This document shows, piece by piece, positions 8,950-39,939 of a DNA stretch of 39,939 nt (position 1 is the stretch's first letter; each line of letters begins with the position of its first letter). A program made the position numbers and the translations under genes. The notes beneath the pieces are model-generated. The model saw nothing but the letters and a program-made list of their open reading frames with translations. It did not search any database and had not been told where the DNA came from. This DNA comes from a virus (taxonomy: Duplodnaviria > Heunggongvirae > Uroviricota > Caudoviricetes), in IMG/VR virus record IMGVR_UViG_2671180758_000025. One strand, 5' to 3'.

Positions 8950-9384
8950 TCAGACTTCTGGTGATAAAGGCCAGACTATATCCGGGGCATCACTTACATT
9001 AATATTTTCAAGTAACTCAAGATAATCCAGCATCGCATTAAATCTGGTTGTCTCCATTTCGTTCAGCCTGCCAAGCTGTAATTTTGATGGCCATTGTTTT
9101 TCATTAATCAGGTTGTTAGCCTCATTAATGCGCATCTGTTTCATCATTTCTGCCTGTTCCACCTGTTCCTCATGGGTCAATGGTGGACGTTCTTCCCATG
9201 ATGGCTGGTTATCAGTGCCTGCAACCATTTTGTACCCTTCCCGATAACCAAGATAAAACTCCTGATAGACTGCATCACTTACCTCAATACAGTCATCCGG
9301 CCACGCATCGAGAGCATCGTAATAATCAGATTTCAGTTCACTGTTATAAAATGCATTTCTTGATGGACTGTAAAAATAACTCAT
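8950..9384 (-). CDS. Tail fibre assembly protein (Tfa family)
   Basis: C-terminus ...NVSDAPDIVWPLSPEV matches the Tfa C-terminal motif. Start placed at the ATG that overlaps the tail-fibre stop (ATGA); the supplied ORF extends to 9417. Confidence 0.75.
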   Translation of the reverse strand: MSYFYSPSRNAFYNSELKSDYYDALDAWPDDCIEVSDAVYQEFYLGYREGYKMVAGTDNQPSWEERPPLTHEEQVEQAEMMKQMRINEANNLINEKQWPSKLQLGRLNEMETTRFNAMLDYLELLENINVSDAPDIVWPLSPEV

Positions 9385-11114
9385 CAGACCCCCTCCGCAA
9401 TAAACCCAATATTCCATCCACCGTTATCTCCGGTGATGCTCAGAGTAAAGCCAGTTGCAGTAATAGCTGTAATGGCGACACCCTCAACACTCCCACCGTG
9501 TGACGAACGGAAAACGGGGATCACGTACCAGCACTGACGGGCAAATGGTGTCGGAAAATTCACCTGATACTCTTTATTCACCACACCAGTTGCCCCGGAA
9601 AAATAACTGTTAAAAAACTGCTTCAGCACACCGCCAGTTATTCGGTGATAATTGCTGCCAAATGAAAATTCATCTTCACAAACACCCCGACGCCATAGTG
9701 TTGTATTGTCTTTAACCGTATCAGAGCCGCTGAAACGGTGATACATTTCCCCTGCTCCGGTGATGAAAATCTGCGCGCGTCTGTTCTTGTTATACGCAGC
9801 CTGAAAACCTGCACCATTCGATGGCACTTCATCTGCATTACCTGAATATGCAAGAAACTGTGAAACCTCACCCATTTCGTAGTTATTATTGCTACCGATT
9901 CCGTATGCTCCCTGTTGCAGAGCACTTTCAGCCTTATCAACCGTCGGTTTAAGTCCCAGATTCTGAATAAACAAAGTCGGGTCAGGAATATCAGCACCAT
10001 TGCGGTCCTTTGCCAGTCTCGCGCTGGCGTTGTCCATCGCAATTTTTACCGCTTTCAATGTCGCCGCAACATTTTCTGACACGCTGTTTACATCGTTCCC
10101 CAGTTGCACCATTCCTTTAACACTCACTGATGCTTCTGGATAATGTGCACTGGTGAACACCTGATTCCACGGTGTTTCATCATCGGCAATTTTCGATAAC
10201 ATGCTGAATCGACAGTACATCTTGCCATCATTAGCGACATAAATCTGTGCACGTCGATTGTCGTTGTAACAGGCCTGGAAACCAGCACCATGTGTTGGCA
10301 CTTCTGGATAGCCGACAGCTGTACCATAAGCAAAAAATTGCGATTTGGTTCCCATGGTTTTCAGATAAGCCAGGCCAATTCCATAATCTCCTGGCTGAAT
10401 CGCTGATGCAGCTTTATCAACAGTCGTTTTCAATCCCAGATTCTGAACAAACAGTGCCGGATTGGGAATATCAGAACCATTGCGGTCTTTTGCCAGTCTG
10501 GCGCTGGCATTATCCATCGCTATTTTCACTGCTTTTGGCGTTGCAGCGACTGTTTCATCATTGCTTTCCACACCGCTATACAGACGTACAAATCCCTTTT
10601 CTGTCAAAGACGCAGAAGGATGGAGGCGCGATTGCTCATGAATTTCTATTTGTTGATCTACATAATGACGGGTTGCCAGCACGACAGCAGGGTCGATTTT
10701 CAGGGTGATATTATCCGTACTGCTGGTAATCAGCACCATGCGCACGGTCTGGGTGCGCCCGCTGCCTTCAGCCAGTTGTGGCTTATAGCTTTCCGGGCAG
10801 TTGCCCACGGCAATCAATGCCCCGGACTCATCAAACAGGCCCACTTCACGTATCCACCAACCGCCCTCGTTTTCTGGGATCACCTGTTCGGCAATAATCT
10901 GGCTGCTGTTCTGCGGGTCGATATAGAGCATATTCAGCGCAGCCCGGCGTTTCTCATTTACCAATGCTGTCTGCTTTGCGTCCGGCGTTGGCAATGTTCC
11001 GCCGCCATCGCCGACCGCCATATGGGTAATTTTTAAAGGCACACCGAGCGCGGCGGCGCTGGCAAGTTTCGCCGCGCCAATATCCGTCAGCAGGGTATAA
11101 AATTTTGTGCTCAT
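9384..11114 (-). CDS. H: Tail fibre protein (P2 gpH homolog) with an internal tandem duplication
   Basis: 576-aa ORF; N-terminus MSTKFYTLLTDIGAAKLA... is gpH-like. Two ~120-aa repeat units (ETVAATPKAVKIAMDNASARLAKDRNG...) lie 480 nt apart. Confidence 0.9.
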   Translation of the reverse strand: MSTKFYTLLTDIGAAKLASAAALGVPLKITHMAVGDGGGTLPTPDAKQTALVNEKRRAALNMLYIDPQNSSQIIAEQVIPENEGGWWIREVGLFDESGALIAVGNCPESYKPQLAEGSGRTQTVRMVLITSSTDNITLKIDPAVVLATRHYVDQQIEIHEQSRLHPSASLTEKGFVRLYSGVESNDETVAATPKAVKIAMDNASARLAKDRNGSDIPNPALFVQNLGLKTTVDKAASAIQPGDYGIGLAYLKTMGTKSQFFAYGTAVGYPEVPTHGAGFQACYNDNRRAQIYVANDGKMYCRFSMLSKIADDETPWNQVFTSAHYPEASVSVKGMVQLGNDVNSVSENVAATLKAVKIAMDNASARLAKDRNGADIPDPTLFIQNLGLKPTVDKAESALQQGAYGIGSNNNYEMGEVSQFLAYSGNADEVPSNGAGFQAAYNKNRRAQIFITGAGEMYHRFSGSDTVKDNTTLWRRGVCEDEFSFGSNYHRITGGVLKQFFNSYFSGATGVVNKEYQVNFPTPFARQCWYVIPVFRSSHGGSVEGVAITAITATGFTLSITGDNGGWNIGFIAEGV

Positions 11115-22365: not shown

Positions 22366-23064
22366 TTATTTGTTTCTTCTTTGTTCACGCCTTGTCTTGG
22401 CTTCGATAAGGCGTTGAGGTTCAGTGTAAAGCCGTTCTAAAAAAAGATAGGTAAAATCTTCAAGATCCTCAGCAGCAGCTTTATCCAAAATACCTTCATG
22501 CGCTCCATCATTTCCGTCATCTTTAACGCATTCAGCTAGTTCCCTTAAAGCTTCAGGCAGTAGATGATTATCAAATAACCACTCCATTCTTAACCCTAGG
22601 CTTCTCCTTATTTTTTGCGCAGGCCCTTGCTCCCCATCAGGAAGAAGTCCTTTTGTGGCATAATCAAGGCAAAGCCTAAACATGGTTGCTGCTGCATTAT
22701 AACAACCTATAGCCAAACATTTCGCCCCTTCCTCATATGCACTATTGATATGCTCAGGTAAGAACTCTGGTGGCTCCTCTACTGCTAAGTCTGCTGGTGA
22801 TATAGGCCTAACAACCTCTGCAACTTCCTTTAAGCCGAATATTCCACTTTCCCAATTATAGCCATCTAAAGTTTTATTTTTCGTTAAAGGTCTGCAAAGA
22901 AACATTGTCGTTTTATGACACTCTCGGCAAACACAATAGACCTCGTACTCGTATGTTTTACCCCCGCCCAATGCATTGTAAACCCTAGTGCAATTCAGCC
23001 CATTAACATCAAACGCTATTTTTTGTGATCCACATCGTGGACAGTCATCCACTAACATAACCAT
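22366..23064 (-). CDS. Hypothetical cargo protein with N-terminal Cys4 zinc ribbon
   Basis: 232-aa ORF; CPRCGS...CVCRECHKT pattern at the N-terminus, then an acidic helical C-terminal region of no family I can name. Visibly AT-rich; converges on Q. Confidence 0.6.
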   Translation of the reverse strand: MVMLVDDCPRCGSQKIAFDVNGLNCTRVYNALGGGKTYEYEVYCVCRECHKTTMFLCRPLTKNKTLDGYNWESGIFGLKEVAEVVRPISPADLAVEEPPEFLPEHINSAYEEGAKCLAIGCYNAAATMFRLCLDYATKGLLPDGEQGPAQKIRRSLGLRMEWLFDNHLLPEALRELAECVKDDGNDGAHEGILDKAAAEDLEDFTYLFLERLYTEPQRLIEAKTRREQRRNK

Positions 23065-23353: not shown

Positions 23354-23965
23354 CTACGTAACCACAGTTAATGTGTGCATCCTGTCTCGAATTGCATCAC
23401 ACGTCTCATCAAAAAGCTTGGTGATGGTTGTATGGTTCAACTCCGCCTCTTTCCAATAATTTTGCCCGTCAAATTCTGGATCGCTATGCTTAAACGATAT
23501 TGACTCTGAAAGGCATTCCTTCCGGAAACGGTCCAAGATTATATAAACCTCTGGTGAGATGAACGGTTTGTTAGATTCAACACTTGTAACAAAAGTGTTA
23601 AATGCATCAAAAAAAACTTTCAACCTTCTAAATTTTCTCTCTTCAAATGGTTCGTTGGGGTCAACATGATCCAGCGCAGGCCTCAGCTTAAGCACGCTTT
23701 CTCTAGTTTCAAACATCGAATTCCAAATGAGACTATATGCTGATAACTCCTTATCAAAATACGCTTTCGTTACATAAACAGAATTGTCTAACTTAGCCTT
23801 TATTCTTTCATTAGTTGCACTCAGTTGTGATTGAAATTCAGCAATATCTTTGTTTAGCCGCGACTTATATCTTTCTAAATAAACTTTCCCGATCCAAACA
23901 AATATGCCAGATGCAACAAAAGACACCCCACCCAACGAAGCCAGAACTTTAAAGACTAAATCCAT
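23354..23965 (-). CDS. Hypothetical membrane-anchored cargo protein
   Basis: 203-aa ORF with a single N-terminal TM helix (VLASLGGVSFVASGIFVWIG) and a soluble domain of unknown family; AT-rich. Confidence 0.6.
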   Translation of the reverse strand: MDLVFKVLASLGGVSFVASGIFVWIGKVYLERYKSRLNKDIAEFQSQLSATNERIKAKLDNSVYVTKAYFDKELSAYSLIWNSMFETRESVLKLRPALDHVDPNEPFEERKFRRLKVFFDAFNTFVTSVESNKPFISPEVYIILDRFRKECLSESISFKHSDPEFDGQNYWKEAELNHTTITKLFDETCDAIRDRMHTLTVVT

Positions 23966-30385: not shown

Positions 30386-30396
30386 GGGGTTTGATT

Positions 30397-31029
30397 ATGA
30401 GTCTAATCAAGGGTGGAAACGATAGTGGGGGTCGTGATGCCATCAACAGGCTGATAAAAGCCTACAATTTCAGCTCACGCCAACAACTCTGCGAACACTT
30501 AAAAGTATCAAAAAGCACCATGGCAAACAGATACTTAAGAGATAGTTTTCCAGCAGAATGGGTAATTCAATGTGCACTAGAAACCGGGATCTCGCTTCTT
30601 TGGTTGGCAACCGGACAGGGTGATATGTATGCAGATAACAGTGACGTAAACATTCTCAAAAATGATAATGACGTCACGATTAGACCACTTTCTAAAATCG
30701 TAGCTCCCAGTATCAAATACACAGAGTTAAGAAATGGTGAACTTCAATCATATGACGAAATTTTATTAGATAGCAGGTTGGTTGAGGGCGACTCGTCAAA
30801 CTATCTATTCATACAAACGACAACAGAAAGTTTTATTGTTGATGTATCTGTAAAACAGATCAGTAATGGCTCCTGGCTTGTTGATATTGATGGAGTGAAA
30901 AGCATCGTAAAAGTAGCTCGAATTCCCGGAAATAAGCTTGTTGTTCATCAGGAAGAAACAACCTTTGAATGTGCAGTTGATGACGTAGACGTTGTAGGGC
31001 GTGTGGTAAAAGTGATTAAGAGCATCTAA
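30397..31029 (+). CDS. cI: CI immunity repressor (186 type)
   Basis: Start at the ATG with AAGGGG 7 nt upstream; N-terminal HTH-like region plus C-terminal domain; followed 3 nt later by int. Confidence 0.8.
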   Translation: MSLIKGGNDSGGRDAINRLIKAYNFSSRQQLCEHLKVSKSTMANRYLRDSFPAEWVIQCALETGISLLWLATGQGDMYADNSDVNILKNDNDVTIRPLSKIVAPSIKYTELRNGELQSYDEILLDSRLVEGDSSNYLFIQTTTESFIVDVSVKQISNGSWLVDIDGVKSIVKVARIPGNKLVVHQEETTFECAVDDVDVVGRVVKVIKSI

Positions 31030-31031
31030 TC

Positions 31032-32060
31032 ATGACGATCAGAAAACAGCCGAACGGAAAGTGGTTATGTGAATGCTACCCAAACGGGAGAGATGGCAAA
31101 CGCGTACGCAAACAATTTGCGACGAAAGGCGAAGCCATTGCGTTTGAGAATTTCACCATGGATGAGGTAAACAAGAAACCTTGGCTGGGAGAAAAGGAAG
31201 ATCGGCGACCACTGTCAGAAGTGATTGAGCAATGGTATTCCCTGTACGGTCAGACACTCGCTGACCCTAAGCGATTAATGGCTAAGCTAAAAATCATTTG
31301 TAATGGGCTTGGCGATCCCATCGCTTCTGAATTGACAGCAGGTGATTTCACAAAGTACCGGGAAGCCAGATTAAAAGGTGAGATCAAAAACGAAGATGGC
31401 GTGCTCATGTCACCGGTTAAGCCCCGCACGGTAAACCTTGAACAACGCAATCTGTCATCGGTGTTCGGTACATTGAAAAAACTAGGGCACTGGTCCGCAC
31501 CAAACCCACTGGCAGGGCTTCCAACCTTCAAAATTGCTGAAGGTGAATTGGCTTTTCTTTCCACGGACGAAATCAAACGCCTGCTTAATGCCTGCGCCGA
31601 ATCTCAAAACACCAGCCTACTAATGATTGCAAAAATATGCCTGGCTACTGGTGCGCGATGGAGTGAAGCAGAAAACCTACAGGGCCACCAAATATCGAAA
31701 TACCGAATTACTTATACAAAGACCAAAGGCAAGAAAAACAGAACAGTACCCATATCACAGGAGCTGTATGACGAACTCCCAAAGAACAGAGGGAAGTTAT
31801 TCTCACCATGTAGAAAAGCCTTTGAACGAGCAGTAAAACGGGCAGGTATAGATCTACCGGAGGGCCAATGCACCCACGTACTGCGCCATACATTCGCTAG
31901 CCATTTTATGATGAACGGCGGAAACATACTCGTGTTGCGCGACATCCTTGGTCACTCGGATATAAAAATGACTATGGTTTATGCACATTTTGCACCTGAT
32001 CATTTAGAGGATGCAGTATCAAAAAACCCTTTATATAGATTAAAATGGACCACACCATGA
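31032..32060 (+). CDS. int: Tyrosine integrase (P2/186 type)
   Basis: 342-aa ORF with the C-terminal catalytic signature ...HVLRHTFASHFMMNGGNILVLRDILGHSDIKMTMVYAHF. Confidence 0.92.
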   Translation: MTIRKQPNGKWLCECYPNGRDGKRVRKQFATKGEAIAFENFTMDEVNKKPWLGEKEDRRPLSEVIEQWYSLYGQTLADPKRLMAKLKIICNGLGDPIASELTAGDFTKYREARLKGEIKNEDGVLMSPVKPRTVNLEQRNLSSVFGTLKKLGHWSAPNPLAGLPTFKIAEGELAFLSTDEIKRLLNACAESQNTSLLMIAKICLATGARWSEAENLQGHQISKYRITYTKTKGKKNRTVPISQELYDELPKNRGKLFSPCRKAFERAVKRAGIDLPEGQCTHVLRHTFASHFMMNGGNILVLRDILGHSDIKMTMVYAHFAPDHLEDAVSKNPLYRLKWTTP

Positions 32061-33076
32061 CTCAAGAATTCGTAATTAGCTATATAAAAAAACCAGAAAC
32101 ATCTACTTTCCTTATAATTTTTTATTTAATATATCTATTTATTGAATACACAAAAAACAAAAATAATAATTATTTCGAAATGACTGAGGAAAGGCTAACA
32201 AAACAAAATTTATTTAAACAATCCATCAGAATACCTATTATCTCATCCTTATACTTCGGTATATTCTCATGGATGGGACACTCTCCTCAATTTGATGCTG
32301 ATGGATTTTCAAACTTCATTGAAATAAGCAAGTTGCCTATCGCTCTTCTTTCCCTTTCGATACCCTTTGTAGCTATAGTCGCTAACATTCACAGAACAAT
32401 ACAAACGGAAAATCAAATTAGGAAAACACAGCAACAGATAGATCTAGTGACTGAGAAAAACCGCAGTGATGCTTACTACGCTCACCTCAAGAATTATTCG
32501 GATATGTTTAAAACGTTACCGTCATTTACCCTTTCTCGTCGAGATAATACAACTTTCGAAAAAGACACAATTAAACTATCTGTAGATCATACCTACTCAT
32601 TATATAAAAAAATATTCACAAAATCCTCAATCTCTACTGGATATAATAATGAAGTTGATAAATCATTCCTTGAAAAATTAGAAAATATATATAACAGCAT
32701 TGGGCATGAAATAGCAAGATACAATCAGCTTTACCCAAAACAAGTTAACATATCTAATTTAGAGAACATTGAAGCACAAGTGGTATGGCTGTGTAGAGAA
32801 CTAGGAGTTAATTATGAAAGAGAAGTCAACAAATTTGAGATTTTTGATCCGATATCAAACTTAGGAATAGAAACATCATTTTCAGATGAAAAAGAAATAA
32901 AAGAAATGCTTCGTGGATTACGAGATATATTGATATCTCTGTACATGCTAATTGATCAAAATACAATTATTTTCCAAGCAACTGCCAATAACGGTGATTT
33001 TTTAGCCAATTATGCTTACGATCCAGATTTTTTGATTTTTAAGGGGATCTTACCTATAGATTCTCAAGGTAAATAA
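32057..33076 (+). CDS. Hypothetical AT-rich membrane protein between int and the att core
   Basis: Three predicted TM segments in the first ~115 residues, then a ~220-aa soluble region of unknown family. Start chosen at the ATG overlapping the int stop (ATGA); an upstream ATG at 32045 is also possible. Confidence 0.6.
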   Translation: MTQEFVISYIKKPETSTFLIIFYLIYLFIEYTKNKNNNYFEMTEERLTKQNLFKQSIRIPIISSLYFGIFSWMGHSPQFDADGFSNFIEISKLPIALLSLSIPFVAIVANIHRTIQTENQIRKTQQQIDLVTEKNRSDAYYAHLKNYSDMFKTLPSFTLSRRDNTTFEKDTIKLSVDHTYSLYKKIFTKSSISTGYNNEVDKSFLEKLENIYNSIGHEIARYNQLYPKQVNISNLENIEAQVVWLCRELGVNYEREVNKFEIFDPISNLGIETSFSDEKEIKEMLRGLRDILISLYMLIDQNTIIFQATANNGDFLANYAYDPDFLIFKGILPIDSQGK

Positions 33077-33235: not shown

Positions 33236-33400
33236 CTTTTTAGTTGTTTGAAGTTCAATGAAGTCTACTAAGCCCACACAGCACAAGCTCTGCGGGCTTT
33301 TTTACGTCTATTGTCGTCCAGTGAGAATTGCTGAGAACTACGAGTTATGGCACCCTGAATGGGACCCATTAAGAAGGGTCCAAAAACCGAGGGTCCCAAA

Positions 33401-34630
33401 ATGGCAAAAATCGCTAAGAAGCTCACTGACACTGAAATCAAAAGCACCAAGCCAGCCGATAAAGAAATCAACTTGTTTGACGGTGATGGTCTGATTCTAC
33501 GAATCGCTCCTTTGGCGAAAGGAGGCAAGAAAAATTGGTATTTCAGGTATGCAGTACCAGTGAGCAAGAAAAGAACCAAAATGAGCCTTGGGACATATCC
33601 TCACCTTACCCTTGCAAGAGCCAGAGCCTTACGTGATGAATATCTCTCCTTTCTGGCAAATGGTGTTGATCCCCAAATCCATAACAACGATAAGGCGAAG
33701 GCATTAAAGAGTGCTACTGAGCACACTCTCCAAGCCGTAGCGCGGAAATGGTTAGATGAGAAGGTAAAGACATCAGGTATCTCACAAGACCATGCAGCAG
33801 ACATCTGGCGCAGCTTAGAGAGAAATGTCTTTCCCGGTCTGGGTAATGTCCCTATCAATGAGATCCGACCTAAGCTCTTAAAACAACACCTTGATCCTAT
33901 TGAGCAACGAGGCGTATTGGAAACTCTACGCCGTATCATTTCACGTCTGAATGAAATCTTCCGGTGGGCAGCTACTGAAGAACTTATTGAGTTCAACCCG
34001 GCTGACAACCTTGGTCAAAGATTCAGTAAACCAAAAAAGCAAAATATGCCTGCCCTTCCCCCAAGCGAATTGCCAAGGTTTATGGAATCTTTGACGAATG
34101 CGTCAATCCGGTTGGAAACACGTATGCTAATTGAATGGCAATTGTTGACATGGGTTCGTCCGGGTGAAGCCGTTCGCGCAAGGTGGTCTGATATTGATAC
34201 AACCAACAGCATTTGGAACATTCCTGCTGATTTCATGAAAATGAAAAAGCTTCACAAAGTTCCTTTGAGTAAAGAAGCTTTGCGCATCCTTGAATTAATG
34301 AAATCAATAAGTGGGCATAGAGAATGGGTTTTCCCCAGCATAAAAGCGCCTCTTAATCATATGCATGAACAAACAGCCAACGCAGCTATCATCCGAATGG
34401 GGTTCGGAGGCGAGCTTGTAGCTCACGGTATGCGTTCTATTGCACGAACAGCGGCAGAGGAGTCTGGTAAATTCAGAGCTGAAGTTCTTGAGGCAGCGCT
34501 TGCCCACTCGAAAAAAGATGAAATTATCGCAGCATACAATCGTGCAGAATATCTGATAGAGCGACAGAGTTTGATGCAATGGTGGAGTGATTACGTTCAA
34601 GCTCAAAGATCAAATGCTCTGGTAGCCTAA
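33401..34630 (+). CDS. intA: P4-type tyrosine integrase (IntA-like, CP4-57 family)
   Basis: Start at MAKIAKKLTDTEIKSTKP... with GAGGG upstream; typical P4-family N-terminus; 165 bp from the att core. The supplied ORF begins at 33359. Confidence 0.88.
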   Translation: MAKIAKKLTDTEIKSTKPADKEINLFDGDGLILRIAPLAKGGKKNWYFRYAVPVSKKRTKMSLGTYPHLTLARARALRDEYLSFLANGVDPQIHNNDKAKALKSATEHTLQAVARKWLDEKVKTSGISQDHAADIWRSLERNVFPGLGNVPINEIRPKLLKQHLDPIEQRGVLETLRRIISRLNEIFRWAATEELIEFNPADNLGQRFSKPKKQNMPALPPSELPRFMESLTNASIRLETRMLIEWQLLTWVRPGEAVRARWSDIDTTNSIWNIPADFMKMKKLHKVPLSKEALRILELMKSISGHREWVFPSIKAPLNHMHEQTANAAIIRMGFGGELVAHGMRSIARTAAEESGKFRAEVLEAALAHSKKDEIIAAYNRAEYLIERQSLMQWWSDYVQAQRSNALVA

Positions 34631-34668: not shown

Positions 34669-35085
34669 ATGGAAACCCTATTCAAAGTTTTTGAAAAATT
34701 TAGTTCCAGACCACTTTTTTTTATTTTTTTCGGACTCTCACTTTGTGAATTTTTTCAGAAACAATCTGTTCTGATGAATCCATCAGCAGATAACATCGCG
34801 AAATTATTCGCAGCCATGATATTAGTTGTTTTTTTTACTTGGGGATTTGAATGGCTAATCTTCAAGTTCAATGTAAACCTTGAACCTCATGATCAAGGCG
34901 ATATTGGACCAACAATTGGAACGGCTACTTTAGCTGTATACTTAGTTTATGCCTTTCACTTTCTCAGTGAAAATCCTGAAGCATTAAATTTAAAGTTATT
35001 AACTAACTCTGGCTTTATATACAGCACAACTCTATTATTATTCTCATTAGAATGCATGAAGCTTAGAAGACTTAAACAAAAATAA
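34669..35085 (+). CDS. Small hypothetical membrane protein
   Basis: 138-aa ORF with 3-4 hydrophobic segments; AT-rich; convergent with the kinase/receiver pair. Confidence 0.45.
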   Translation: METLFKVFEKFSSRPLFFIFFGLSLCEFFQKQSVLMNPSADNIAKLFAAMILVVFFTWGFEWLIFKFNVNLEPHDQGDIGPTIGTATLAVYLVYAFHFLSENPEALNLKLLTNSGFIYSTTLLLFSLECMKLRRLKQK

Positions 35086-35156
35086 ACAACATCATTGTGA
35101 TGATAAATATAAAATAGGCATGGCGAAAAAAAATCACCACGCCTAAAATATAATAA

Positions 35157-36905
35157 TTATGGTAGCATCATTGATACATAATCCACACCAATCCTTGAGC
35201 TATACTGAGACGCTATAGCCTGATATCTTTCTGCATAACCAGTTCTCAGTTGAGATTTAAGTTTGAGTCGGACAGGAACATTTTGCACGTTGCCATCCAT
35301 ATTACTTAAAAACACGGCAGAAATAATATTTTTTTCTTCGCCATCAACTGTTGTTCCATGATTCAACACCACCATATAATCAACAACAGGAAGCGTTTTA
35401 TCCCCTTCGAAAATAGAGAGATATTTTCTTTGATTTTTATGCATTACATATATATATTTCGAATGTTCAGCAAATGGCAATGCTTTACTCTGACTGGCGT
35501 TAAAAAGCTCCAGAACTTTAATGAGCCTGTGCGGACTTAATCTTACATGGTGAGGGTCGTTACCCTGAGTAGGAACCAAATCACATGCCGCAGATACACA
35601 TAAATACCATTTGTTCGACTCTGTATCAAAGAAAATAGTGCCAGTAGAAATATGACCATCTTCAAAATTCTTTGAAGACAAATTCATATTTAAAGCATGA
35701 TACATTTCGTGATAAGTATCATTATTTGATGGCAGATCCATTTTTGAAGAGCAATATTGGAGCAATGCAGCAACTCCGCTGTTAGCGTATTCATTTGAAT
35801 AGCTATCAAAAACACTTTTGATAAATTCATCCAGCGTATTATTATTTTTAAGTCTTTGATAAAGCTCTTCTGATAAATTACCAAATACAAAGTCAATATT
35901 TCTACATCTAATATCAGGCGAGTCTGATTTTAATATCTCATTTAACCACGCAGCTTGACCGTAATGATCGTTAGCCAAATGATTTACAAAAGATAAAGCC
36001 TCAGCTTCGATTGCATTCTGAATTTCAGATTTTATTAACTGATAATAAGATGGTTTCCATTCAATGAGAGAATCATTGAGAGTTTGCCAAATCCTATCTC
36101 CATCGTTTTCATGATCATCTTGAACCTTATGAAATAGGGAGACAAAGATATTACCACATTGAATCCATTTTACTCCGCTTTCATCACCCCGAATGACATT
36201 GCCAGATGTGTTGCTAGAAATAATTGCATTTCTAGACACAGCATATTCTGCAATCATTTTTGCAATGAAGTTTTTATCCTTTTGATCCTCCAACACAGCA
36301 TCATCATGTATTAATCTTTTAATTCTTCTACAAGGCTTACTGTCTTTAATATAGGCTATTGTTTCATCTCTTGTGAGAGCTTTATTACCATTATCATTTA
36401 AGTTCGGTAATACAACGTCTTCCCAATAACTTTGGACATCTTCATTATCGTAGTCAATGATCAAGCTGTTGATATCCAGAGCACCTTTGAGAGTCGATGA
36501 TATCTGCATCCAAACCGTTTCTAAATTCTCTCTAGTATATATTACAATCATATTTAAATGATCGGAGTCTTTCAAATCTTGTAATAGTTTAAGTGTTTTA
36601 TCAGGTGCATTATTATCAAGATGATAATCTACAATAATAAGATCTGATTTTCTAATCCGATCCACATCGAAATTAACAGAACCATTGTCAACATCACAAA
36701 TCATATTTTTAGATTGAAAAAAGCTCTCAAGAGTAGCGGCTCGTTTAGATGAGTCAATTTTGTTGTAGTCTAAATCAACTTCGTTATTCAACGCCCTGAT
36801 TGATTCAGAATACGTCAGAAAATCGTCATCAATCATGACAACGGAACGAATTGCATTTTCGCAGAAAGTTTTCTGGACAAGAGAATTATAATTTGCCACT
36901 GTCAT
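35157..36905 (-). CDS. Receiver (REC)-domain protein with large unrecognised C-terminal domain
   Basis: N-terminus has CheY-like landmarks (VVMIDDD, LIIVDYHL, MIVIYT); about 450 aa follow with no motif I can name. Start chosen 1 nt after the kinase stop, with GGAG upstream; an ATG at 36923 is also possible. Confidence 0.7.
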   Translation of the reverse strand: MTVANYNSLVQKTFCENAIRSVVMIDDDFLTYSESIRALNNEVDLDYNKIDSSKRAATLESFFQSKNMICDVDNGSVNFDVDRIRKSDLIIVDYHLDNNAPDKTLKLLQDLKDSDHLNMIVIYTRENLETVWMQISSTLKGALDINSLIIDYDNEDVQSYWEDVVLPNLNDNGNKALTRDETIAYIKDSKPCRRIKRLIHDDAVLEDQKDKNFIAKMIAEYAVSRNAIISSNTSGNVIRGDESGVKWIQCGNIFVSLFHKVQDDHENDGDRIWQTLNDSLIEWKPSYYQLIKSEIQNAIEAEALSFVNHLANDHYGQAAWLNEILKSDSPDIRCRNIDFVFGNLSEELYQRLKNNNTLDEFIKSVFDSYSNEYANSGVAALLQYCSSKMDLPSNNDTYHEMYHALNMNLSSKNFEDGHISTGTIFFDTESNKWYLCVSAACDLVPTQGNDPHHVRLSPHRLIKVLELFNASQSKALPFAEHSKYIYVMHKNQRKYLSIFEGDKTLPVVDYMVVLNHGTTVDGEEKNIISAVFLSNMDGNVQNVPVRLKLKSQLRTGYAERYQAIASQYSSRIGVDYVSMMLP

Positions 36906-36906
36906 A

Positions 36907-38625
36907 TTAGAACTCCACTCCATTGAACTGGATCACAAAATTAGCGCCATCTTTTATTAAATAGTTATCGCCTTCATCAGGTTCTGAATACCATATTTTA
37001 TGATGTGCAACAGCAAGGTTTTCTCGACATAGATACAGACCTACCCCATGTCCATTTGCTCTTTTGCTATAAAATAGTTCAAATAGTCGCGGGATATCAT
37101 CGGTATCAATTGCCGGACCAGAATTTGCTATGATAACCAAAGAATTCACAAAACCAATATTTATGAGCCTATTATTTGACAGACTGACCCAATACATTGC
37201 ATTGTTGATAATATTAGTAAAAACAGGATAGATCCTTGATGGTATATCTGTTATTGCGATTTGCTTAAACTCTTCACTAAATTCAATAGTTATTCGTTGC
37301 CGTTCGAAACGCTCCCCAAAGAACTTCAGGACATAATCCATGATATTTTTTCCAGTTATTCTCTGCCTGGATTGATAACCTGATATTTTCAAAGGTGATA
37401 AGAAACGTATTTGTTGAGTAAGCGATCTGTGAGCATTTAACGCCAATGAAAAACCAGGGTGTTCTTTTACAGAAGTAGGAAGAGAGTTTAGTCCTCTGGT
37501 TACCATAGAATCCATTTCTTCAAGTTCATGAGATATTATCTCAACACTAATACCTAACTGTGCAAGCGCGTTTAAACTTTTAGCTTTTTCTTCAAAATAT
37601 GAGCGTTCTTCTTCAGATAATGAGAATGCTGAATCTAAGTTTATACCTTCAAATAATCTATCGAGACCTTTTATTATTGATTGATATTTGAAAGTTAGGG
37701 TATCAACTGACTCAACATATAAACTATCGAGCAAATTAAACACATTTTCAATTTGTGAATCATTATCTATTGAATCAACAACTGATATAGTTTTAGCATA
37801 ATAATCACTTCGATCAACCTTTATTTCATCGGCCCATTTTTTTAAAAGAGAATGTATCTTCTCCTCTATCGTGTTATTAAACTTAGTTAGTTTAGAATTA
37901 ATAATACCTTGATTTTTTTCAAGGTGATTTTTCGCTGACAATGAAGGCTCAAGTTTATTTAATTCAGAATCAAGTTTATTAATTGCTAACTTCATTTGTA
38001 GAATATACGCAGAGAATTCATTAAATTTATCTCTGTAGTCTCTATATTTCTCTTCATACATTCCAAGTTTTGGAGGTTTGATAGGCGTTTTAATTTCACT
38101 GCGCAACGCATCTAAGTTTGTAAGATCACTGTCTATAATTTTAAGATAGTTTAAATCTAACGAACCATCAGTTTTATCAAGCTTAGTTTTCAGCCTTTTA
38201 ACAGCCTCCAAGGAAGCATCAAGAACTGGTGTCTGATTCTTCAAAGCTTCTGAAAAACTTTTTTGTGTTGATTTTCGAGCTTGTTGTTGAGCAGATTTTC
38301 TTAACTCTTTTTCACGCTTAACTTGTTCTAAAAGCTCTTTACGGTCATCAGAACGTGAACCAAAAAATCTATCAGCAAGTTCAGTTAACAAATTAGATAT
38401 AATAGTTTTCAGTTCTCTTGCAGCCTGGTTTCTTATGAATCCCTCTCTCCCCGACTTATCTTTCAGCTCTTTATTACTGGATTGAGTAATTCCAATATAA
38501 CCAAAAATCCTTCTATTAGACCAATAATATCGCCCTGCATTCCATGAACGTCTTTCTTCTATCTGGAAGAAATCATTATCTACTCGACCATAAGGTAATA
38601 CTCTCAAGCTATCCCTAAAAATCAT
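36907..38625 (-). CDS. Cytoplasmic histidine-kinase-like protein (HisKA + HATPase_c core); 5' end may be disrupted
   Basis: C-terminal third carries H-box-like ISHELEEM, N-box NIINNAMYW, G1-like ANSGPAID, F-box FELFYS and G2 GHGVGLYLC. No TM helices; Lys/Glu-rich coiled-coil N-terminal region. The frame stays open upstream to the IS3 end. Confidence 0.7.
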   Translation of the reverse strand: MIFRDSLRVLPYGRVDNDFFQIEERRSWNAGRYYWSNRRIFGYIGITQSSNKELKDKSGREGFIRNQAARELKTIISNLLTELADRFFGSRSDDRKELLEQVKREKELRKSAQQQARKSTQKSFSEALKNQTPVLDASLEAVKRLKTKLDKTDGSLDLNYLKIIDSDLTNLDALRSEIKTPIKPPKLGMYEEKYRDYRDKFNEFSAYILQMKLAINKLDSELNKLEPSLSAKNHLEKNQGIINSKLTKFNNTIEEKIHSLLKKWADEIKVDRSDYYAKTISVVDSIDNDSQIENVFNLLDSLYVESVDTLTFKYQSIIKGLDRLFEGINLDSAFSLSEEERSYFEEKAKSLNALAQLGISVEIISHELEEMDSMVTRGLNSLPTSVKEHPGFSLALNAHRSLTQQIRFLSPLKISGYQSRQRITGKNIMDYVLKFFGERFERQRITIEFSEEFKQIAITDIPSRIYPVFTNIINNAMYWVSLSNNRLINIGFVNSLVIIANSGPAIDTDDIPRLFELFYSKRANGHGVGLYLCRENLAVAHHKIWYSEPDEGDNYLIKDGANFVIQFNGVEF

Positions 38626-38776
38626 TAGTCCTGCATACTTTTTGGCCTTAAGATCAAAGTGGGAATGTTCACGTTCAGTATGTGATGTATTTTGTGAAAG
38701 GAATTCAAACGTTCCTATCTGAAGCTCAAATGGGCCGACCCCTGCGTGATCCTACCCACGTAATATGGACACAGGC

Positions 38777-39643
38777 CTAAGCGAGGTTCTTGTTTTCAAA
38801 TTGTTCCGGACTGAGGCCGCCACACCAACTGTGCCGCCGCCACCGATTGTAATCACATTCGATATAATTAAACACCGTTGCCCGCATTATTTCCCGGCTG
38901 ATAAAGTGTTCTCCATGGATACATTCCACTTTCAGCGAATGAAAGAAGCTTTCCACGCAGGCATTATCGTAGCAGCAACCTTTTGCGCTCATACTTCCAC
39001 GCAGATTATGCCGCTTCAGTTGCGCCTGATAATCTGCTGAACAGTACTGGCCTCCACGGTCCGTGTGAACGATAACGTTCCGGGGCCTCTTACGCCGCCA
39101 CAGCGCCATCTGCAGGGCATCGCAGGCCAGTTGCGCCGTCATGCGTGGCGACATTGACCAGCCAATAACGGCACGTGACCACAGGTCAATGACCACTGCC
39201 AGATACAGCCAGCCTTCATCTGTACGTAAGTACGTGATGTCTCCTGCCCACTTCTGGTTCGGGCCACTGGCGTAAAAATCCTGCTCCAACAGATTTTCTG
39301 ACACAGGCAGACCGTGTGCGCGGTAGCAGACCGGGCTGAACTTCCGGGAGGCCTTTGCCCTCAGTCCCTGACGGCGCAGGCTTGCCGCCACGGTTTTTAC
39401 GTTAAAGGGGTAACCCTGAGCACGCAGTTCATCCGTCAGGCGTGGGGCACCGTAACGCTGTTTTGACCGGGTAAAAGCCGCGAGGACAACGCTGTCGCAG
39501 TGTTGGCGGAACTGCTGACGCGTGCTTATCCTTGTCCGCCGCTGACACCACGTATACCAGCCGCCGCGGGCCACCCGGAGCACGCGGCACATTGCTTTGA
39601 TGCTGAACTCAGCCTGATGTTTTTCAATAAAGACATACTTCAT
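38777..39643 (-). CDS. insF: IS3 transposase OrfB (integrase core)
   Basis: 288-aa ORF recognised as IS3 InsF; normally expressed as an OrfAB fusion by -1 frameshift. Confidence 0.9.
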
Positions 39644-39939
39644 TTCAGGCGCTTCGCGAAGTATGTCGCGGCCTTTTGGAGGATAGCCAGCTCTTCATCC
39701 CGTTCTGCCAGCTGGCGTTTGAGACGTGCAATCTCGGTAGACATCTCCAGTTCACGTTCAGAAGACGTCTGCTGATTTTGCTGTTTACTGCGCCAGTTGT
39801 AGAGCTGTGATTCATACAGGCTGAGTTCACGGGCTGCGGCAGTAACACCGATGCGTTCAGCAAGCTTCAGGGCTTCACTGCGAAATTCAGGCGAATGCTG
39901 TTTACGGGGTTTTTTACTGGTTGATACTGTTTTTGTCAT
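39640..39939 (-). CDS. insE: IS3 transposase OrfA (HTH)
   Basis: 99-aa ORF recognised as IS3 InsE; its start codon is the last triplet of the window. Confidence 0.9.

Follow-up and report, generated by a model that had tools for sequence, protein, structure and literature searches.

The kinase and receiver genes at 35157–38625 of the window (the whole 39,939-nucleotide stretch of DNA analysed here) are a decayed member of a known family and the remainder of a three-gene cassette, and the pair is probably inactive here. An earlier note had described a compact immune module of two genes; intact relatives show that these genes belong to a larger operon of three, in which a C5 DNA methylase gene comes first, often with Vsr. 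Taken as a whole, we regard it as moderately probable that the window carries a likely inert remnant and that the intact cassette is a methylation-linked immune or addiction module operating via phosphotransfer.

The gene pair and the deletion at IS3

Both minus-strand genes reported earlier are real, with ORFs at 36907–38625 (572 aa) and 35157–36923 (588 aa); for the latter, RefSeq annotation and homologues place the start at 36905, giving a protein of 582 aa. The receiver gene starts 1 nt past the kinase stop codon, as the earlier note had it (TAA-T-ATG), and is preceded by GGAG. The AT-richness of the pair was also borne out, with a GC content of 33.9% compared to 52.7% in bases 1–30000, and so was its position between a P4-type integrase and an IS3. 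The locus contains the following features:

33359..34630, plus strand: P4-type tyrosine integrase of an ssrA-linked island (Pfam Arm-DNA-bind_3, Phage_int_M and Phage_integrase; 409 aa from the RefSeq start)
34669..35085, plus strand: hydrophobic hypothetical protein of 138 aa that belongs to the island backbone, its gene converging on the receiver gene
35115..35145, minus strand: terminator-like hairpin with a 12-bp stem and a T run behind it, located 12 nt past the receiver-gene stop codon
35157..36905, minus strand: receiver-effector gene, 582 aa, WP_000214990.1, apparently intact (Response_reg_2, full-length alignment and AF2 model)
36907..38625, minus strand: annotated 'ATP-binding protein', 572 aa, WP_000577255.1, equal to residues 417–988 of a 988-aa GHKL-histidine kinase
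38626..38746, minus strand: kinase codons 377–416, in frame, 5' of the annotated start (identity to the full-length kinase P0038)
38747..39939, minus strand: IS3, running off the window end (terminal inverted repeat at 38747, orfB at 38777–39643, orfA from 39640)

The same integrase gene adjoins the cassette in intact islands of Salmonella, Serratia and Klebsiella. The 138-aa protein, which gave no match in Pfam or PADLOC, is encoded at the same position in all enterobacterial copies that hold it (L002–L007, L009, L011 and L012).

Damage to the 5' end of the kinase gene, hinted at in the earlier note, was confirmed: the annotated ORF comprises only the last 572 of 988 codons. Comparison with P0038 showed 606 of 612 residues to be identical over its residues 377–988, and this identity begins at the first base after IS3, which places the truncation point at 38746/38747, with 38746 in codon 377 of the kinase gene. 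Intact 988-aa relatives, 99% identical, are found in Salmonella, Klebsiella and Serratia. The missing codons 1–376 encode the whole N-terminal MORC-like GHKL ATPase module. Neither a C5 DNA methylase gene beside the pair nor a Vsr gene was found in the window. A deletion that now has IS3 at its edge took away the methylase gene together with the promoter region and codons 1–376 of the kinase gene. The N-terminal HATPase_c_3 domain, which occurs in 83% of the family, is absent from the window and present in the 99%-identical relatives; its absence is secondary, so the pair still belongs to the family as a truncated member.

The truncated pair is present, with both ORFs open, in 560 of 5426 complete E. 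coli genomes (about 10%), and its carriers are 99.9% identical to one another. The methylase gene and the 5' part of the kinase gene of this allele were found in none of the 5426 genomes. The E. coli locus is already annotated as a 'remnant integrative element' in GenBank AJ304858.2.

Conserved domains of the kinase and receiver proteins

The catalytic regions that survive in the window map as follows:

35160..36053, minus strand: family-specific output module of the receiver protein, residues 285–582, a helical bundle and a beta-rich domain
36057..36848, minus strand: REC domain, residues about 20–283, with a long helical insertion
36627–36629, minus strand: receiver phospho-acceptor Asp93
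36967..37242, minus strand: HATPase_c catalytic domain of the kinase core with N, F and G2 boxes (PF02518, conservation and PDB histidine-kinase matches)
37384..37560, minus strand: HEF_HK DHp (dimerisation/phospho-acceptor) domain (PF19191)

Profile-HMM searches supported the kinase motifs. On the kinase fragment, HEF_HK (PF19191) scored 26.1 bits against a cut-off of 24.1 over residues 356–414, and HATPase_c (PF02518) scored 44.2 bits over residues 462–553. The motif ISHELEEM lies at 37513–37536 with the phospho-acceptor His366 at 37528–37530, corresponding to His782 of the full-length kinase, and is followed by Glu367 (the two residues at 37525–37530), the conserved histidine and acidic residue of the HEF_HK domain. 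The N, F and G2 boxes are located at 37189–37215, 37066–37086 and 37030–37053, respectively. The histidine-kinase core described in the earlier note therefore holds for its H, N, F and G2 boxes but not for G1, where the putative motif (NSGPAID) is degenerate and, across the family, the Gly alone is conserved.

In its full-length form the protein is not a sensor-less kinase. Full-length homologues of 975–998 aa combine HATPase_c_3, HEF_HK and HATPase_c. Among 36 kinases, the N-terminal ATPase has its Bergerat motifs (E32/N36/D39, D61xGxG and GxKGxG) conserved in at least 95%, and the same holds for H782–E783 and the N, F and G2 boxes of the kinase core.

The receiver domain proposed earlier was recovered as Response_reg_2 (PF19192) with 109 bits and an E-value of 3.7e-31. 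The protein aligns over its full length with 36 homologues, and its AF2 model has a pLDDT of 85. An acidic pair (D26 and D27), D93, T124 and K260 are invariant across the homologues. Given that these residues and the kinase boxes are conserved, the two proteins appear competent for a phosphorelay, and the proposal of a genuine, soluble kinase/receiver pair of the phosphotransfer type is upheld, with the kinase confirmed by the HMM matches.

The output module is also highly conserved, with N406, G422, C436, C441, P445, Q552, R554, Y557, R571, G573 and D575 invariant and H403, T423 and D442 conserved in at least 90% of sequences. Over these approximately 300 residues after the REC domain, no Pfam family and no HTH were matched, and fold searches returned no DNA-binding match, in agreement with the earlier view that the output is not a recognisable transcription factor; no known output domain was recognised. 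A search for the module in other architectures returned only fragments of the same family. Two E. coli entries, P0127 and P0128, are C-terminally short and labelled 'partial', reflecting contig ends or mutations.

The intact cassette and its possible role

In intact form, as seen in E. coli ICEs and in Salmonella, Serratia and Klebsiella, the gene order is C5 DNA methylase, 988-aa 'paraMORC' GHKL-ATPase/histidine kinase and 582-aa receiver protein, with a 20-nt overlap between the methylase and kinase genes and the 1-nt junction between the kinase and receiver genes. Of 31 species-level loci, drawn from six phyla or classes, 25 encode a C5 methylase no more than two genes away and follow the order methylase, kinase, receiver protein; the other six have none detectable by phmmer. 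The methylase of the relatives matches PF00145 (E 9e-59) and MTase_II models, and neither the receiver protein nor the kinase was matched by an REase model. The gene most often found nearby is Vsr (11 of 31 loci), and further neighbours include HNH/type IV enzymes, SoFic, PifA, JukB, MADS genes and PDC candidates. The cassette is carried as cargo by ICEs and integrase islands, so the mobile location suggested earlier is upheld, and the locus is not a housekeeping one. The family comprises about 470–1200 clusters at 50% identity in many phyla. Carriage on plasmids was limited to two distant matches; carriage by phages was rejected, as the two 'phage' records turned out to be E. coli chromosomal flanks.

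The cargo status on ICEs and islands, the defence-gene neighbours and the precedents of the Ambrosia and Detocs systems (see the next section) lead us to consider the intact cassette as probably an immune or restriction-like module. Any role in defence, addiction or regulation is one that we infer from sequence. We propose that the methylase would mark the host's own DNA, and that Vsr, found in a third of the loci, would repair the resulting 5mC deamination. The N-terminal MORC/MutL-like ATPase of the kinase would be the sensing part, with DNA state as the most likely signal, and sensing would trigger autophosphorylation of His782 in the HEF_HK domain, followed by phosphate transfer from His782 to Asp93 of the receiver protein. 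Phosphorylation of Asp93 may then release the family-specific C-terminal domain as a toxic or nucleic-acid-targeting effector. More tentatively, the cassette might be a distinct form of methylation-linked immunity, in which a MORC-like ATPase fused to a histidine kinase reads DNA state and, through His-to-Asp phosphotransfer, activates an effector of a fold not seen before; the effector would be contained in one polypeptide, and no separate nuclease gene would be involved.

A rather unlikely alternative is that the intact pair is a two-component system of the conventional regulatory kind, whose task is to turn on a restriction-modification (R-M) system encoded nearby, as proposed by the authors of a 2021 survey (PMC8011034) and in the working model for Ambrosia (bioRxiv 10.1101/2025.09.30.679545). 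The survey gives statistical support for an association with R-M genes (PMC8011034), and the methylase and HNH genes of Ambrosia are induced on infection, with transcriptional induction as the proposed mode of action (10.1101/2025.09.30.679545). Within our set, an HNH or type IV enzyme adjoins the cassette in 3 of 31 loci.

It seems unlikely, too, that the cassette is mainly a selfish addiction module that stabilises its ICE or island by killing the cell after loss, with phage defence as a side effect at most. Many R-M systems kill cells after being lost, and the combination of a methylase with a potentially toxic effector follows the same logic. In every case the cassette is carried by an integrative or conjugative element, and the E. 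coli survivors have lost the methylase and the sensor together, as if loss of the methylase alone were lethal; the defence-rich neighbourhoods, however, are at least equally compatible with immunity. Addiction and defence are not mutually exclusive.

Very unlikely is the reading of the earlier note, in which the kinase-core fragment and the receiver-effector would still work in E. coli as a phosphotransfer defence system complete in two genes. In its favour, their ORFs are open and near-identical in the 560 complete genomes, the fragment retains the DHp His and the entire catalytic domain, the receiver residues are all intact and the 1-nt junction would permit translational coupling. Against it, the conserved N-terminal ATPase at the sensor position, the methylase and the native promoter are gone, promoter-like consensus matches near the fragment are not above chance, the near-identity of the carriers fits recent clonal spread as well as selection, the lineage-specific changes in the kinase fragment are 6 non-synonymous versus 4 synonymous (too few to interpret), and a 572-aa kinase form was not seen among distant relatives outside truncated or mis-started contexts. 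The remnant is the preferred reading. As a deletion remnant that lacks sensor, methylase and native promoter, the copy in the window is most likely inert and, in place of the working immune module proposed earlier, unlikely to be functional. Two observations count against inertness, namely that both ORFs are intact in about a tenth of the complete genomes and that the receiver gene shows 3 synonymous versus 1 non-synonymous lineage-specific changes, numbers too small to carry meaning. The ORFs of the remnant are probably still open because the deletion is recent, rather than having been kept for function. Cloning the pair as it stands would probably yield nothing, given that it is only a broken piece of the cassette.

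The wider interest lies in the intact form, where ICEs and islands of many phyla carry the methylase jointly with the MORC-like ATPase-kinase and the receiver protein, whose output domain is highly conserved. MORC-type ATPases silence chromatin in eukaryotes. Should the intact cassette prove to be immune, it would connect MORC-type ATPases in bacteria with phosphorelay signalling and with self/non-self marking, and would add a new effector domain.

Comparison with known systems

The gene pair is already known and is not the distinct new variant that had been suggested. It belongs to the HEF_HK/Response_reg_2 family (PF19191/PF19192) of two-component-like pairs, which was described by sequence analysis, without experiments, by Bellieny-Rabelo, Pretorius and Moleleki in 2021 (Genome Biol Evol, PMC8011034). 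Both Pfam models exceed their curated cut-offs on the window proteins. The published features, a soluble kinase, an adjacent receiver gene (91.6% linkage of the pair), an upstream C5 methylase and an N-terminal HATPase_c_3, are all present in the intact relatives, whereas the window copy has lost HATPase_c_3 and the methylase through the deletion. The output domain of approximately 300 aa and the association with Vsr lie outside the 2021 analysis. In the literature searched, we found no experiments on the family published since then.

The closest validated relative is Ambrosia of P. aeruginosa, an anti-phage system that consists of AbrR (XRE), AbrA (N6 methylase), AbrB (HSP90-like/HK ATPase), AbrC (REC) and AbrD (HNH), and in which the phospho-acceptor Asp of the REC domain is essential for defence (10.1101/2025.09.30.679545). 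In both systems a methylase is clustered with a receiver protein and a kinase of probable dual-GHKL type, and the kinases are homologous in the N-terminal part of AbrB. The first 399 aa of AbrB are collinear with P0038 over residues 8–125 (32% identity, E 6e-11) and 411–479 (33%, E 4e-6), of which the window retains the second segment only. This sole validated relative nevertheless has a different receiver and a separate nuclease. AbrC is a 209-aa REC protein with a reported wHTH, unrelated to Response_reg_2, compared with 582 aa in the cassette, and hhalign of our receiver alignment A1 against AbrC gave a probability of 0.2. Ambrosia further differs in its N6 rather than C5 methylase, in the length of its kinase (747 aa for AbrB versus 988 aa) and in having separate HNH nuclease and XRE regulator genes, both of which are absent from the enterobacterial cassette; HNH neighbours were seen in only 3 of the 31 loci.

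Detocs, composed of the DtcA kinase, the stand-alone receiver DtcB and the receiver-PNP effector DtcC (Rousset et al. 2023), is an analogue of the cassette and not a relative. Common to both is the logic of a kinase acting, on defence islands, on a receiver whose fused effector is not transcriptional and which it phosphorylates. The additional Detocs gene, given as an Hpt in the earlier note, is DtcB. Neither the window nor any of the intact loci contains a DtcB-like stand-alone receiver gene, and no PNP or other known effector domain was matched on the receiver protein in Pfam. Searches against PADLOC-DB v2.0.0, a release that may not include Detocs models, gave only marginal, unrelated matches, the best being PD-T4-6 with the kinase fragment (E 0.027) and C3a59 with the receiver protein (E 0.0028), while the full-length kinase had no match at E 0.01 or better. 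Because no PADLOC match was convincing and DtcB is missing, membership in Detocs was rejected. Moreover, DtcA has a TPR N-terminus where the cassette kinase has a GHKL ATPase, and the cassette operon, unlike Detocs, includes a methylase.

Two further comparisons concern the methylase. The paraMORC and other MORC-like GHKL ATPases have been linked to restriction-modification genes (Iyer, Abhiman and Aravind 2008, as cited in later work). The cassette resembles these in its N-terminal HATPase_c_3 with conserved Bergerat motifs, located beside a DNA methylase on mobile elements; its GHKL domain, however, is fused to a complete histidine-kinase core and paired with a receiver, rather than with a nuclease domain such as the DUF4263 of Shedu-type paraMORC3. 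The type II-like C5 methylase, with Vsr close by in the 11 loci noted above, is reminiscent of Dcm-Vsr, but in the cassette the methylase is translationally linked to the kinase through the 20-nt overlap.

Two elements in tandem at ssrA

The window is a stretch of E. coli chromosome at an integration hotspot, the tmRNA gene ssrA. The order of ssrA, prophage and small island indicates that two elements lie there in tandem, the second, small island adjoining the prophage on its far side from ssrA. In other strains the small island is found directly beside ssrA without the prophage. The features are as follows.

698-1060: tmRNA gene ssrA
1184 to about 33100: 186/P2-like prophage, directly after ssrA
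8950-9417: prophage tail-fibre assembly protein
9384-11114: prophage tail fibre
30391-31029: prophage CI repressor, phage-186 type
31032-32060: prophage integrase
33359-34630, plus strand: P4-type integrase of the small island
34669-35085, plus strand: 138-aa hydrophobic ORF
35115-35145: strong terminator-like hairpin, 3' of the receiver gene
35157-36905, minus strand: receiver gene
36907-38625, minus strand: kinase ORF
38747 to window end: IS3

The kinase-receiver pair has a GC content of 33.9%, against 52.7% in the first 30 kb, and its two genes meet at a TAA-T-ATG junction (kinase stop, receiver start) with GGAG upstream. The feature exists as described, and the earlier note read its motifs correctly. 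The pair does not form a two-gene system. The intact islands of relatives hold a C5 DNA methylase upstream, and the kinase ORF is a fragment of a longer gene. Homologues of the 572-aa kinase product split into E. coli proteins of 572 aa and proteins of 975-998 aa, the latter carrying an additional N-terminal HATPase_c_3 domain (PF13589) and including 99%-identical proteins of Klebsiella, Serratia and Salmonella. When the reading frame is extended 5' of the annotated start, it yields 612 residues, 606 of them identical to residues 377-988 of the full-length Salmonella kinase (988 aa). DNA identity to the intact allele begins at the first base past the IS3 terminal repeat (38746/38747), at codon 377, so that codons 1-376, all upstream DNA and the native promoter have been lost. 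Of 5426 complete E. coli genomes, 560 carry the truncated pair, and megablast found the methylase and kinase 5' region of this allele in not one. GenBank AJ304858.2 (CP-1639 integration site, E. coli 1639/77) already labels the stretch 'remnant integrative element' and the kinase fragment 'histidin kinase-like protein'. In that record the codon-377 breakpoint (2683-2745) is joined to ygaQ-side DNA without IS3, and its occurrence in both this IS3-free copy and the window indicates that one ancient event made the junction. We are nearly certain that the window copy is a remnant of a three-gene cassette.

The bases at the joint differ, 'CG' in AJ304858.2 and 'TTATCT' followed by IS3 in the window (38747) and in another compared locus (L001, 16940-17004), a difference that neither straightforward insertion of IS3 with duplication of 3 bp nor its precise excision would leave. 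A receiver 100% identical to that of the window is encoded on a 7.5-kb contig (DYWT01000267.1) filed as a 'Sporosarcina psychrophila' metagenome-assembled genome; with its truncated kinase, 138-aa ORF and integrase it has the layout of the E. coli remnant and most likely comes from E. coli and was binned wrongly. The 138-aa ORF contains several hydrophobic stretches, is a constant companion of cassette and integrase in enterobacterial islands, is missing from distant loci, and matched no family in Pfam or PADLOC. Within the prophage, an AT-rich patch (41-45% GC) of possible defence cargo holds two minus-strand ORFs: one of 232 aa (22366-23064), matching DUF4145 (E 4.5e-7) and PD-T7-4 (E 1.2e-6), the PADLOC model of a single-gene defence system, and one of 203 aa (23354-23965) with zero Pfam or PADLOC matches. 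A 343-aa plus-strand ORF (32045-33076; 31% GC), which overlaps the prophage integrase gene at its end and likewise had no Pfam or PADLOC match, is cargo at the prophage end.

The intact cassette and its neighbours

The kinase gene is preceded in all intact islands by a gene for a C5 cytosine DNA methylase (395-402 aa; PF00145, E 9e-59), with an overlap of 20 nt at the kinase start; methylase, kinase and receiver genes are translationally linked. The cassette is carried on mobile elements, and a second allele (73% identity) has the same set of three genes in an ICE with TraI_2, TraG, TraU and ArdC. Searching one genome per species with a receiver-protein profile returned 38 loci, from Gamma- and Alphaproteobacteria, Gemmatimonadota, Acidobacteriota, Myxococcota and Desulfobacterota. 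The same architecture recurs across them: in most complete loci a 970-1080-aa kinase lies directly 5' of a 590-670-aa receiver (ORF and phmmer table), and phmmer placed a C5 methylase at most two genes away in 25 of 31 loci, mostly first in the operon and in four loci downstream on the opposite strand. The receiver-protein family comprises 1187 clusters at 50% identity (E up to 1e-3), or 468 at E up to 1e-30, and among the best 150 matches listed nearly all are full length. In two distant loci, L046 (at about 8-10 kb) and L038 (upstream), the cassette appears damaged, either by a split in the methylase gene (182 + 149 aa) or by fragmentation of the kinase (156 + 859 aa), which indicates that its decay is not restricted to E. 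coli.

The cassette is associated with Vsr and with defence genes. When 111 flanking proteins were scanned with Pfam and PADLOC, Vsr, a repair enzyme for 5-methylcytosine deamination, was the most frequent neighbour (11 loci). HNH and type IV enzymes adjoin the cassette in three loci, further defence neighbours include SoFic, PifA, JukB, MADS genes and several PADLOC candidate systems, and mobility neighbours comprise integrases, TniQ and conjugation genes. The Vsr gene (138-149 aa) is often the fourth gene, just 3' of the receiver (L023, L026, L038, L041, L044 and others), and is present in L023 and L041 even though phmmer gave no C5 methylase nearby.

Conserved residues and possible function

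Both ATPase sites, the phospho-His, the phospho-Asp and residues of the output domain are conserved. When 36 diverse full-length kinases are aligned, conservation in the two nucleotide-binding modules reaches the 95% level:

N-terminal Bergerat ATPase: E32/N36/D39, D61-x-G-x-G, G104-x-K-G-x-G
Kinase core: H782-E783, N887/N890/N891, F931/F934, G941-x-G-x-G

A middle region that the window keeps, R420...P427-Y428-G429...G475-R476-E477-G478, shows conservation too. D26, D27, D93, T124 and K260 are invariant in 37 receiver proteins. In the output module, N406, G422, C436, C441, P445, Q552, R554, Y557, R571, G573 and D575 are invariant down to 22% identity, and at least 90% of receiver sequences share H403, T423 and D442, which hints at an active site or else an interface that is obligatory. 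The output domain matched no Pfam family in any of 24 members and no PDB sequence, and no case was found of it beside a different N-terminal domain. A likeness to CcdB/MazF is a lead only, and the domain is not any known type of DNA-binding output domain.

The intact cassette is probably an immune or addiction module. The methylase would mark host DNA, and the MORC/MutL-like N-terminal ATPase would sense DNA state or a phage cue; His782 would then autophosphorylate and pass its phosphate to Asp93, freeing the output domain as a toxic or nucleic-acid-directed effector. We propose this whole chain tentatively, and that the cassette represents a distinct phosphorelay-gated immune mechanism is a possibility to be held with the same reserve. 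Were the intact system to attack unmarked DNA, a surviving lineage would be expected to have lost methylase and sensor together, in one deletion.

Bellieny-Rabelo et al. 2021 (PMC8011034) treated this pair in a sequence-based study without experiments, which reports a C5 methylase upstream, an HATPase_c_3 domain and a paraMORC connection, and speculates that the pair regulates R-M systems. That the intact pair acts purely as a transcriptional regulator of R-M genes seems unlikely to us. A primarily selfish addiction module, which would be compatible with defence, we consider quite unlikely as well. It is also unlikely that the two-gene remnant is still active, as the window copy is without sensor domain, methylase and promoter, and promoter-like matches near the kinase fragment were not above chance. 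Its lineage-specific substitutions (six non-synonymous and four synonymous in the kinase fragment, one and three in the receiver gene) are too few to interpret.

Comparison with known systems

The window pair is a decayed representative of a family known from earlier sequence analysis, and both family and E. coli locus had been annotated before; a literature search found no later experimental paper on HEF_HK/Response_reg_2. The remaining interest rests with the family itself and its effector. The earlier note had suggested that the pair may be a two-gene variant without the Hpt gene that it ascribed to Detocs. The third Detocs gene is a stand-alone receiver, and the window pair is no variant of Detocs, the likeness being one of logic only. 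PADLOC gave the window pair only marginal matches to unrelated models (PD-T4-6, E 0.027; C3a59, E 0.0028) and the full-length kinase none at E 0.01 or better.

Among validated systems, Ambrosia (bioRxiv 2025.09.30.679545) comes closest. Its components are an XRE regulator, an N6 methylase, AbrB (an HSP90-like/HK ATPase), AbrC (a REC protein) and AbrD (an HNH nuclease); each of them is needed for defence in P. aeruginosa, and the REC D60A mutant is inactive. We compared residues 1-399 of AbrB and the complete AbrC (preprint Table S1) with the proteins here. The 209-aa AbrC bears no relationship to Response_reg_2 (hhalign probability 0.2). AbrB and the kinase share homology over two collinear segments (E 6e-11 and 4e-6).
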